NCBI GenBank assembly: GCA_951406725.2
Contig: OX597817.1
Span: 125,860,001 to 125,924,000 of the forward strand
Source of the DNA: Octopus vulgaris
Taxonomy: Eukaryota
DNA: 64,000 bases
Direction of reading: 5' to 3'
In this document: positions 27,972 to 58,530 of the stretch, in pieces
Position numbering within the stretch: position 1 is the stretch's first letter
Layout of the letters: each line of letters opens with the position of its first letter
Notes under the pieces: model-generated
The model's database searches: none
What the model saw: only the letters and a program-made list of their open reading frames with translations
Told to the model about the DNA's origin: nothing
Translations under genes and position numbers: made by a program

Positions 27972-28021
27972 AAGCATCAGCAAATTAGGCAAGTTAATGG
28001 ACAAAAAATATTAAATACATT

Positions 28022-28354
28022 GCAGCGAGGAAAGTGTTTATAAGCCATTTAAGAAACTCACAAAACCGTTAGATTAACTTTAACATTTAAATTTAATTTG
28101 TCAATATTTTCGTCGCTTTCAGACTGCGACCTGTTCACTGACAAAATTCCGTGCAGTACGGAATTTTGTCAGTGAACAGGTCGCGGTCTCAAAGTGACGA
28201 AAATATTTTTACAAATTAAATTTAAATGTTAAAGTTAATCTAACAGTTTTGTGTGTTTCTTAAATGGCTTATAAACACCTTCCACGCTGCAATTGTTTTC
28301 GTTCCAGCACAGGATCTTAGATCAGCTCACTTGCTATGCAAGTACATCTCCGTA
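28022..28354. mobile_element. Young palindromic insertion (~135-bp arms plus ~60-bp 3' extension) with 12-bp TSD and paired variant hammerheads
   Basis: Near-perfect hairpin centred at ~28155. TSD ATTAAATACATT at 28010-28021 and 28355-28366. The opposite arm of the host element has only one copy of this site. Confidence 0.9.
28165..28215 (+). ncRNA. Variant type I hammerhead (G3-C8 core GUGAACA)
   Basis: TTTGTCA-GTGAACA-G-GTCGC-loop-GTGAC-GAAA-ATATT-T-TTACAAA. A mirror copy lies on the minus strand at 28097-28145. Confidence 0.65.
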
Positions 28355-30690
28355 ATTAAATACATTTAAAACAAAAAATGTACATAAATTTACATATAAA
28401 AAATGTCCGATTTACACAGAATAGAAATACTTTCAGGAATTAAATGGACTGCATAAGAGTTTTTCAATAGCTGTTTTTAGGATTTGGTGGTCCAAAATAA
28501 TGATTGTAAATTGATTCCATCATCAAATAATACCAACTTTCGTCTTCAGAAAAGAAGTTTACATTTGAGGTGTTGACAGATTTAAGATGGAATGATTTCG
28601 TGGAGAACTAAGTGTATGAGATGGAAGAGTTGGGAGATATTTAGATAAGGAGTAGTGGGAGGAGATTTTGAATTTCAGCATTAGGAGATATTAATGAGGT
28701 TAATGATAACAGTAGTGGTGGGAGCTGGGAGGGAGAGGGGATGGTGGTTTAGGTAGTATGCGAATAGTAACCTTTTTTGTTAGTTTGTATGAAGGCTATA
28801 GTGTTAAAGTTTGAGGTAAAGAATATGAGAATGACCACTGTTTGAGAGGGAGGTGGGATAGAGTAGGGTGAGTAGATTGTCAGATTAGTAGCTGATATTG
28901 GGACAAAGGAATTGGGCTGGCTGGTATTGGAGGTGGTGTTATGGTATGGGGAGTTGTATGAAATGTGTATGAAATTGAATAGAGGGTGTGAATAGGGAAG
29001 GGTAGAAGTAGATTGGTTAGTTTTAAAAGGAGTGGGTAGTGTTAAGTACTTTTGAAAGTGGGGAGAGTGGAGATGCTAAGAGGGAAGTGTGAAACAGTTG
29101 ATTTGAAGAATTCAGAAGAAATTGAAAAAGTATTAGAGAAGGAAAGTTTTTAAGTAGTAGGCTGCTAGGCTTACTTTGTCTTAGTCTAAGGTTTTTTGGG
29201 TAAGGATATTCAAAGTTATGGGATTACACAGATTTAGCAAGTGAAAGATGAGTAATACCTGTGTTTACAAGAATAAATTACAACATTGACCTATTAAGTA
29301 ATTACACAAATTTCCATACAATAAAACTCCTTTCCTATATCAACCCAATTAAATTTTCCCAATAACAACTAATATTTTGACAACCTACTCAGCCCCACTC
29401 TATCCCCCGCCACCTCCGCTCATTCCTCTCTACATGCCTTACTAATCTCCCAAAGCCACTGAACTATTTCCCTCAAATAATGGCCATTCCCATTTTCACT
29501 ACTTCAAAATTTAGCTCTATAGCCTTCATAAAAACTAACACAAATGTTGCCATTCACATACTACCTAAACCACCCTTCCCTCTTCCTCTCACCTTCCACC
29601 TTCAAATTTAGCCTCATTAATAACCCCTAACCCTGAAATTTATTTTCTCCTCTCACTACTCTCTATCTAAATACCTTCCAATTCCACCATCAAATACATT
29701 TAGTCCTCCACAAAATCATTCCATCTGTTAATCTCGTTTCTGTCAAGACCTCAAATGTTAAATTCCTGCTTAAAGACGGAGGTTAATATCCGATGATTGA
29801 ATCAATTTACAATCATTATTTTGGACCACCCCAGAAACTACTGTTGGACTTGTAAAACTCTCATACAACCACTTTTATCTGACATCATTTCTATTCTGTG
29901 TAAGTCAGACCTTTTTATATGTAAACTTGTAGGCTTTTTATATTAAACGCATTCAATATTTTCTGTATATCGACTAGCCTACTTTGCTTCTCTACTACCT
30001 ATTCAAGTCTAAATCTCTTAAATACATATACATATATGTATTTATACACACACATATATATGTATATACATGTATTGCCATATGTATATATGTGTATATA
30101 TATATATAAAATTGACATCCAAGGACCGAGGTGTAGGCGGTTAGTAAGTTTCGAGTAGCAAGTAGAAGGACAATTTTCAGGAACAATAGTGGTTTATTGG
30201 CGTAAAAGATTCCCATACCGAAGCTGAAAAATGTTAATGTATAGTTCAAAATTTAGGGAATGGAGTAGGTAAAATCCAGGTTACATATGTTTCCTAGTAT
30301 CCAGAACCTCCGAAGCAGTGAATACTGAACGAGGGGTAAGGCGCTAGCAACTCATCAGGCTACAGACCCCTTAATGAAATGAAGGTTAATTGTCGTCAAG
30401 GAACCCCAATGTAAGTCGCAGAGATTTGCCAGAAAATCGATGGGAAGACAGAGTGAGAGAACAAAAAGGAAAGCATATGTGTGAAGAAATGACATATGGT
30501 AGGGGGTAAATGTCTAAAGTCGTTAAGGAAAAGAATAAGAATAAAGAAAAGGATAGGCGGAAGAGTAAAGGAAATTTGGTAGCATTGAAGCTGGCTACGG
30601 GAAGGTCTTTGAGAATTTAGGCTTGGGTCATTTACTATGTCTACTGTGAAATAAATAAGTAAATAAATATATTTTGGAACCCTGTAAATA

Positions 30691-32116: not shown

Positions 32117-32393
32117 ATTTACATTATTTACAATTGACGGATATTTGTCCTCATCTTGTTTGTTGTTAACACAGCGTTTCGGCTGAAATACCCTCCAGCC
32201 TTCATCAGGTGTCTTGGGGAAATGACGAACCTGCGTTCTCATTAATAAGTATTTTTCGATGTTGTTGTTGTTGTTCTTCTTCTTCTTCTTCTTCTTCTTA
32301 TTATTATTATCATGATTATTCAGGTCACTGACTGGAATCGAACTCGGAATGTTGGAGTTAGTAGTTCGCGCTCTTAACCACTACGCCATATGC
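32117..32393 (-). mobile_element. tRNA-headed SINE-like element with an internal microsatellite and a 3' hammerhead
   Basis: Minus strand A box TGGCGTAGTGG and B box GAGTTCGATTCC, an (AAT)(AAG)(AAC) spacer, then GACAC-CTGATGA-A-GGCTG..CAGCC-GAAA-CG-CT-GTGTT. Confidence 0.85.
32168..32213 (-). ncRNA. Minimal type I hammerhead (U16.1 mutated to C in this copy)
   Basis: Stem I GACAC/GTGTT, perfect 5-bp stem II GGCTG/CAGCC, CUGAUGA and GAAA intact. Stem III reads ACGC rather than the palindromic ACGU. Confidence 0.75.
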
Positions 32394-35240: not shown

Positions 35241-38920
<3,680 letters not shown>

Positions 38921-57337: not shown

Positions 57338-58530
57338 CAGGGTGGGGAAGCAAAATTTACAATATTTTGAGGCACGGATTGAAAGACAGTATATGACCAG
57401 TTTGTTTATTGAAAGTCATGAGAATTTATTTGCCACAAGACAATCTACATATATTCGGGAGAAAACTTCTCCCATTCTTCTTTAATAGTACCTTTAAGAG
57501 AGATGACATTGCTGTGTGATGTTCTATTGGTAGCATGTTCTAAAGCGCCCCAAATAGCATAATCCAGAGAGTTTAGATCTGGACTAGAATGCGGCCATAA
57601 ACATGATTCCAAAAAATTGCTGAAGTTGGATTTGCAGAAAATTTGTATTTTTGTAGTTGTGTGGGCTGGATCACCATCCTGTGTTCATACATAATTACCA
57701 TCTGGGTAGTTTGCTTTAAGCCATGGCAATACCTGGAGTCTTGTAGTAAGCATTAACATTGATCTTTTCATCAGCTTTGTAGAATTTTATAGGCATTTTC
57801 TTTCCATCGGAAGCCACAACACCAAAAGCCATAACATGAGCAGGATGTTTTCTTTTGAATGTCCCCTTAACCTCAGCTGTCAATTTTGCGATAAATCTGT
57901 CATTTCCGCTGTTCAGAACAGCATCGACAATGAAGATCTTTTTATCTGGAAAGATCGTTACAATGGGGGACTTTTTCTTGAGCCATGTAATAATTTTCTT
58001 GCACCTCTCCAATGTCTTTTCCTTCATAGCTGTTGTCAGCAAGTGTTTTGGTGTTCTCGTGTAGGATTTTAACCTCAAATCATATTTTACAGCATTTCTA
58101 ATGGTCTTGTTGTTTACCTTAAGTTCAATTGCTATTTTCCTCATGGATTTGGTTGGATCCTTTAGGATTTGGGATTTGAGAGCCTTAATAAAAGCTTTGG
58201 TACGTCTTTTGTTGATTCCTCAACTTCCAGACTTCCTCGTAATAGATTTGCTCATAGCCATTCTATTCTTTACATTATATATAGTCTTTATGGACACTCC
58301 AACTATTTTTGAAATCCCCTTTAGTGTGACGAGTGCATTCAGAAAATCACACACTCTTTGACTGTTGCTTTCCTGATTACTCATAAGGGCAAAACTTTCT
58401 GAAAAGGTACGGATAATAGTGTTAGGTATGAGTATGAAATCAATATAAGCTAGGTTTCAAAACAATTGACTTAGTGCCTCCTGAGAAAAAACAACTTAAC
58501 TTTCATTGTAAATTTTGCTTCCCCACCCTG
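57338..58530 (-). mobile_element. Full-length Tc1/mariner superfamily element, DD37D (maT) family, 1193 bp
   Basis: Perfect 26-bp TIRs CAGGGTGGGGAAGCAAAATTTACAAT (57338-57363 and 58505-58530); TA TSD at 57336-57337 and 58531-58532. Confidence 0.95.
57417..58384 (-). pseudogene. DD37D transposase pseudogene
   Basis: MSNQES..HTH..IFPDKKIF..VMAFGVVASDG..TQDGDPAH..WPHSSPDLNSLDYAIW, with 37 residues between the second and third Asp. Contains internal stops and frameshifts. Confidence 0.9.

Follow-up and report, generated by a model that had tools for sequence, protein, structure and literature searches.

A probable natural G3-C8 variant of the minimal hammerhead in a Penelope-like retrotransposon of Octopus vulgaris

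A palindromic pair of hammerhead motifs

In a 64,000-nt stretch of Octopus vulgaris DNA (the window), two short copies of the pLTR of a Penelope-like retrotransposon lie head to head at 28019-28356. The minus arm (28019..28154, minus strand) covers the pLTR between a point close to the inferred transcription start and the pLTR end at about codon 10 of the ORF and has no tail, and the plus arm (28152..28356, plus strand) continues through a tail of ~60 nt to about codon 31. The arms overlap by 3 nt at their junction (28152..28154). The insertion is flanked by a 12-bp target-site duplication, the left copy of which (ATTAAATACATT, 28010..28021, plus strand) overlaps the element end by microhomology, while the right copy is at 28355..28366 (plus strand). 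The plus arm includes the first 31 codons of the RT-endonuclease ORF, Neptune-type by its layout (28264..28356, plus strand; starting MAYKHLPRC), with a stop inside this copy. Together the arms make up an inverted repeat of 275 nt (28019-28293), whose predicted folding energy is -191 kcal/mol. Two letters that differ from the family (28231 and 28236) are common to both arms, and thus both are likely to stem from one template.

The first-pass annotation had read a full type I hammerhead topology with the core G3-U-G-A-A-C8-A on each arm, and the core was located on both, set within hammerhead-like stems. In the plus-arm motif (28165..28215), the 5' strand of stem I (TTTGTCA, 28165-28171) is followed by the core GTGAACA (28172-28178; G3 at 28172, C8 at 28177), an extra G between the core and stem II (28179), stem II (GTCGC, 28180-84, with GTGAC, 28194-98), GAA (28199-201), the palindrome AATATT (28202-07), U17 (28208), after which the cut is predicted, and the 3' strand of stem I (TTACAAA, 28209-15). 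In the minus-arm motif (28097..28145, minus strand), GTGAACA runs from 28138 (G3) to 28132, with C8 at 28133. The stem II pairing GTCGC/GCGAC, which had been ascribed to both arms, is present on the minus arm, but the plus arm has GTCGC/GTGAC with one G-U wobble. The two lesions noted earlier are real: a T at 28210, private to the plus arm where the family has G, breaks the stem I pair adjoining the cut, and 2 nt are gone at 16.1/17 from the minus-arm motif, which is predicted to be dead. Both hammerhead copies in the window are damaged, predicted to be inactive and buried in one long hairpin. The palindromic stem III had been called typical of dimerising Penelope hammerheads; this agrees with the traits of such motifs described in PMC4209133. 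The two arms in the window lie on opposite strands and cannot dimerise with each other in one transcript. A 14-mer of the core, allowing two mismatches, occurs twice in the window against 0.28 expected.

Next to the insertion, 28370-29944 is occupied by a long degenerate inverted repeat (arms of ~480 bp, 76-91% alike, with a spacer of ~620 nt), for which no match was found among the fetched loci or three Penelope proteins. A canonical C3-G8 minimal hammerhead, in which C replaces U16.1, belongs to another repeat at 32168-32213 (minus strand). Judged by eye, the ORF fragment at 35400-36814 (minus strand) resembles a non-LTR RT with a restriction-like endonuclease, and that at 57716-58219 (minus strand) a Tc1/mariner transposase; neither has a Pfam match, and none was obtained for the three window ORFs compared apart from that of the element.

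The parent element

The parent of the arms was reached from longer copies, upstream of which a microsatellite-rich UTR of ~1 kb is preceded by a C-terminal endonuclease. A protein search gave a young subfamily of many near-identical copies, in which the core is identical and loop II differs. Among at least 120 homologues, the best one with a name is P0001, which its source labels Octopus vulgaris; a locus of this genome matches it at 100% identity, and the host is thus probably that species or one very close to it. The element is recently active in octopus. One locus, L170, is a pLTR-ORF-pLTR tandem whose hammerheads are 4,261 nt apart. The ATG of the ORF is 92 nt after G3 and the product would be ~1,070 aa long; no complete open frame was found among the fetched copies of the G3-C8 family. 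Pfam GIY-YIG scores above cut-off at the C-terminus (aa 887-977 of 997). RT motifs were recognised by eye, and Pfam RVT_1 gave no match in the ORF; the Cys linker CxxxCxxC between RT and endonuclease reads CQSNCAVC or CQNNCAVC. The link to Penelope that had been suggested is thus supported, as the motif lies within the pLTR of a Penelope-like element (PLE) with RT and GIY-YIG.

Neptune and Nematis elements are described as having a single ORF for RT, a CxxxCxxC linker and GIY-YIG at the C-terminus (PMC8557442). The octopus element resembles the Neptune clade in this single-ORF layout, in its pLTR tandem, tail (optional in the clade) and inverted 5' copy, and in its microsatellite ((TA)n) targets, although its tail is ~60 nt against 30-40 nt in the clade (PMC8557442). 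We call it Neptune-type by layout and traits, the protein tree having been built from unnamed relatives. A Naiad parent was ruled out, since the endonuclease is C-terminal and not N-terminal. A non-LTR retrozyme was also rejected: the copies are mostly dispersed or inverted and come from a coding element, rather than being head-to-tail non-coding hammerhead units. It is extremely improbable that we are dealing with a MITE or hairpin-RNA locus whose likeness to the hammerhead is due to chance. The long, stable inverted repeat and the lack of an Rfam hammerhead match would suit such a locus, but both arms are copied from the pLTR of an element with RT and GIY-YIG, most family copies are not palindromic and the homologues covary, so that chance likeness is refuted by the parent element and its homologues.

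The 3-8 pair in the family and its relatives

In the 2.8-Gb genome, the exact 20-mer around the G3-C8 core is present in 6,323 copies (reversed control, 0), and a non-G3 letter at position 3 in the same context in 203. Among the 100 listed of these 203, position 8 is C in 91, G in five, T in two and A in two, and the C3 copies (n=17) all carry C8, with G8 in 0/17. Where motifs were reached via the endonuclease, with the anchor placed downstream of the core, 32/34 are G3-C8, one is G3-G8 and one A3-C8. In contigs holding the repeat from four runs labelled as four species, G3C or C8G changes at 2% or more were found in none (4/4 runs; table of changes by kind, 40 of 43 rows). Both G3 and C8 are thus the family state. 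The literal C3 and G8 of the canonical CUGAnGA pattern are not the family state, and for this reason the motif is filed as a variant and not as a canonical hammerhead. All of U4, G5, A6, A9, G12, A13, A14, A15.1-U16.1 and H17 are present as the family state (the minus arm without 16.1/17), and so are the marks of the minimal form in PLEs, namely the extra nucleotide 9/10.1, G10.1-C11.1, the palindromic stem III and the location in the pLTR. The 3-8 pair forms in the catalytic conformation of the hammerhead, where the chemistry at position 8 depends on the 2'-OH and not on the base, and G3-C8 is likely to keep this pair in Watson-Crick form. In the predicted fold of an intact young copy, which is open at stem I, pair probabilities are 1.0 in stem II and 0.74-0.99 in stem I; stem III is unformed in the predicted monomer, and the palindrome duplex alone contributes only -0.2 kcal/mol.

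Between an old subfamily (49 copies) and the young one (21 copies), 0/42 core and stem columns differ, a conservation partly built in by the selecting pattern, which favours conserved stems. Differences are found at 5/9 loop II columns and at 12-14/48 four-fold sites of the ORF. The G3-G8 copies are oversampled in the old set and lower its C8 to 76%. About 4/85 columns of the remaining 5' leader differ; since the leader downstream is conserved too, conservation of the core alone is not specific.

A sister octopus family, that of P0001 (58% aa identity), has many open frames of ~1,310 codons and carries C3-G8 at the same pLTR position (53 motif copies at 30 loci; CTGATGC-G-GTCAC...GTGAC-GAAA). 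Among 19 metagenome loci, a hammerhead is present in seven, five found by descriptor (L226, L227, L231, L240, L243) and two by eye (L225, L228), and was not found in the other 12, many of which stop short of the 3' UTR; in a control over 50.7 kb the descriptor gave five sense and 0 antisense matches, with a shuffle mean of 0.05. The motif is C3-G8 in L227, L231 and L225 and U3-A8 in L226 and L228, directly after the ORF in each case, and C3-G8 in the distant relatives L240 and L243. No relative was found on viral contigs. In a 9-row alignment, positions 3 and 8 are paired in 7/7 cells with letters (CG 3, GC 3, UA 1), the three GC rows being one family and 2/9 rows being misaligned to gaps at 3-8; a two-sided change is found in 12/13 pairs of the alignment, with slid controls scoring far below this. 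Across the seven families compared, 3-8 is always Watson-Crick with varying letters, and U4, G5, A6 and the GAA box (G12-A13-A14) are retained.

Some relatives have further unusual letters. A9 is normally near-invariant in hammerheads; in the sister family, C9 (CUGAUGC followed by G) is present in all 53 copies (L199:57 and L200:57 in element sense; G000 C5 and C17), and stem III is non-palindromic. L226 also has C9. In L225 (4963-5020, by eye), C3-G8 is combined with U15.1-A16.1, the palindrome reading UAGCUA; this is another swapped core pair within the lineage.

The protein tree, with six open inner branches and four long rows, joins the G3-C8 family and the octopus C3-G8 family at 99/99. 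Because the G3-C8 family is nested among C3-G8 and U3-A8 relatives, G3-C8 is likely to be derived, with a single origin. The swap looks derived and compensatory, as relatives carry C3-G8 or U3-A8 at the same place in the pLTR and their stems covary; the earlier claim of a compensatory swap is thereby supported. It might instead be supposed that the ribozyme had become dead or dispensable by the time drift fixed the two substitutions in a single master element, the pairing of G3 with C8 being a coincidence later spread by a successful lineage. With a single origin, thousands of G3-C8 copies count as one event, and both single intermediates are inactive in published tests (PMC11167929, PMC9901934), as this explanation would allow. 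A dead motif, however, should have decayed elsewhere. The old and young subfamilies have diverged at roughly one in four silent sites, yet neither has lost any of the remaining core letters or either stem, which makes drift very unlikely.

The swap has engineered but, in the sources compared here, no natural precedent. The 56 rows of Fig. S3 on PLE minimal hammerheads (Cervera, PMC4209133) comprise 53 C3-G8, two U3-A8 and one U3-G8, with no G3, and differ in this from the octopus G3-C8. Shared with these hammerheads are the pLTR location, the extra nucleotide 9/10.1, G10.1-C11.1, a palindromic 15.2-16.2, the common U17 and the occurrence mostly as solo or opposite-strand copies, although the extra nucleotide is G in octopus and H, with one G example, in that consensus (PMC4209133). 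Natural U3-A8 hammerheads (Perreault 2011, PMC3088659; Schistosoma Cercyon, PMC4209133) show that compensatory changes at the 3-8 tertiary pair occur naturally in another form too. U3-A8 is reached by two transitions via a U-G wobble, whereas G3-C8 takes two transversions with inactive single steps. Position 3-8 is the pair seen in the crystal structure (PMC9901934), and engineered C3G/G8C partly restores cleavage in the Anolis Poseidon PAc Penelope hammerhead (PMC11167929), being, in a full double-mutant scan, the only rescue for that motif (PMC9901934). This is the same swap in laboratory mutants, whereas in octopus it is the natural state of a family. A G3-C8 variant is stated to be more active with G17 than with C17 (PMC3884650, data not shown there), from which U17 may serve to avoid a G3-C17 trap. 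A natural G3-C8 form was not found in the available text of the published hammerhead literature; the alignments of Lunse 2017 and figure-only supplements could hold one.

Judged by these comparisons of sequence, the G3-C8 motif is likely to be a real natural ribozyme variant. It would bring to three the Watson-Crick forms in which the 3-8 tertiary pair is found naturally, and its host element was recently active and numbers thousands of copies. The family had been proposed to be one that searches for CUGAnGA would miss. G3-C8 is indeed family-wide, but the Rfam hammerhead models, which have no match on the window or an intact family copy, also have none on the C3-G8 relative L227, and hence their failure is not due to the swap alone. 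Pattern searches based on CUGAnGA would undercount ribozymes, which bears on elements reported without hammerheads, since patterns of this type were used in PMC8557442.

Copy ends, cleavage and the life cycle of the element

The inferred start, AGATGCAGC, is reached by 1,593 copies; among 100 listed, 81 stop there and 19 run into the upstream UTR. The letter preceding the 81 stops is G in 45, C in 21, A in eight and T in seven, and the 45 G-bearing starts have no shared sequence further upstream (both by eye, among the 100 listed). Reverse transcriptases can copy a cap as G. As copies stop at the inferred start, many with an unshared extra G, the templates look capped and uncut, and we infer a capped RNA whose transcription starts at an initiator-like CTCAGAT, ~23 nt ahead of G3. 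A spliced first exon was rejected as the source of the extra G, because the 45 G starts share nothing upstream and a copied cap fits better. Before the inferred start (e.g. L170:2598-2622) there are branch point-, pyrimidine tract- and YAG-like sequences, and an intron as in Drosophila Penelope is possible. At the other side, the copies have two end points, one at ~codon 10 and the other at ~codon 31, which match the two internal priming sites and tail of the Anolis element (PMC11167929).

At the predicted cut site, 106 copies have a non-T letter before the predicted 3' product, and ~55 of 100 listed are junctions, 15 of which are explainable by stem I microhomology. A control site 20 nt downstream gave 213 copies, with junctions in 12 of 100 listed. 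The resulting estimate, ~58 junctions at the cut site vs ~25 at one control site, is about twofold, as a comparison of raw counts read by eye. In ~6% of three raw RNA runs (organism C), there is no place where many molecules begin or end, so that no pile-up is seen at the cut site; these reads come almost all from dispersed copies, with a depth of <10 on the ORF. A sequencing-run search gave no RNA run among the matches listed. Metazoan minimal PLE hammerheads are reported to cut poorly in vitro (PMC4209133), and minimal PLE hammerheads are thought to need a dimer (PMC4209133, PMC6765202) or a protein (PMC11167929); insertion in vitro did not require cleavage (PMC11167929). On balance, we consider it probable that the pLTR motif of this Neptune-type element, which has the layout of a minimal type I hammerhead, keeps its 3-8 pair as G3-C8 and cleaves slowly after U17, provided that it is dimerised or assisted by the element's protein, the damaged copies in the window being predicted inactive.

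G3-G8 is found in 16 distinct copies, 12 of them on a 2.3-Mb part of contig C16; in most, the ends are proper and the 3' flanks differ. The C16 cluster (G000, 4.84-7.15 Mb; L077, L081, L091, L094, L095, L098-L100, L107, L108, L111 and L113) suggests that a source whose core is unpaired retrotransposed locally, and, as the copies recur with different flanks, an unpaired core could still insert. The repeated insertion of this lineage may be taken, together with the apparently capped and uncut templates, the unusual letters that relatives tolerate (C9 in both the sister family and L226; U15.1-A16.1 in L225) and the poor cleavage of metazoan minimal PLE hammerheads in vitro (PMC4209133), to mean that the fold is kept for a non-catalytic job, such as binding of the element's protein, shaping of the leader for translation or reverse transcription, or overlap with the internal promoter, with negligible cleavage. 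We regard this as unlikely, since the pair of the catalytic conformation stays Watson-Crick in all seven families while its letters change, and U4, G5, A6 and the GAA box are unchanged in all of them.

If slow cleavage after U17 does occur, its place in the life cycle could be as follows. The hammerhead would sit between the cap and the start codon, so that a cut would remove the cap, which would be lost ~55 nt before the start codon. The natural partner would be the second hammerhead 4.26 kb downstream in the tandem transcript, joined via the AAUAUU palindrome. Reverse transcription probably starts internally at codon ~10 or ~31 and copies back to the cap, giving solo copies of 140-200 nt. 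On this view the short copies are reverse-transcribed from the 5' ends of RNA that was not cut, and the palindrome of the window arose from a pair of them, made on a single template and placed head to head. More speculatively, the motif may act as a timed decapping switch, the lineage being a natural mutagenesis series (C-G, U-A and G-C at 3-8, C9, U15.1-A16.1) in which G3-C8 yields a slowed, protein-dependent ribozyme, with uncut RNA translated and copied and cut RNA retired. This proposal is doubtful on present evidence, but if true it would allow the function of Penelope hammerheads to be tested directly.

One genome that holds G3-C8, C3-G8, U3-A8 and an unpaired G3-G8 lineage constitutes a natural set in which to ask whether Penelope ribozymes need to cut. 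Three forms of the 3-8 pair coexist in the octopus genome because, alongside G3-C8 and C3-G8, it contains a high-copy Penelope-like family (L048-L069 and L166 of G000) with a 781-codon frame and a U3-A8 hammerhead (UUGAUAA) with the palindrome ACAUGU.
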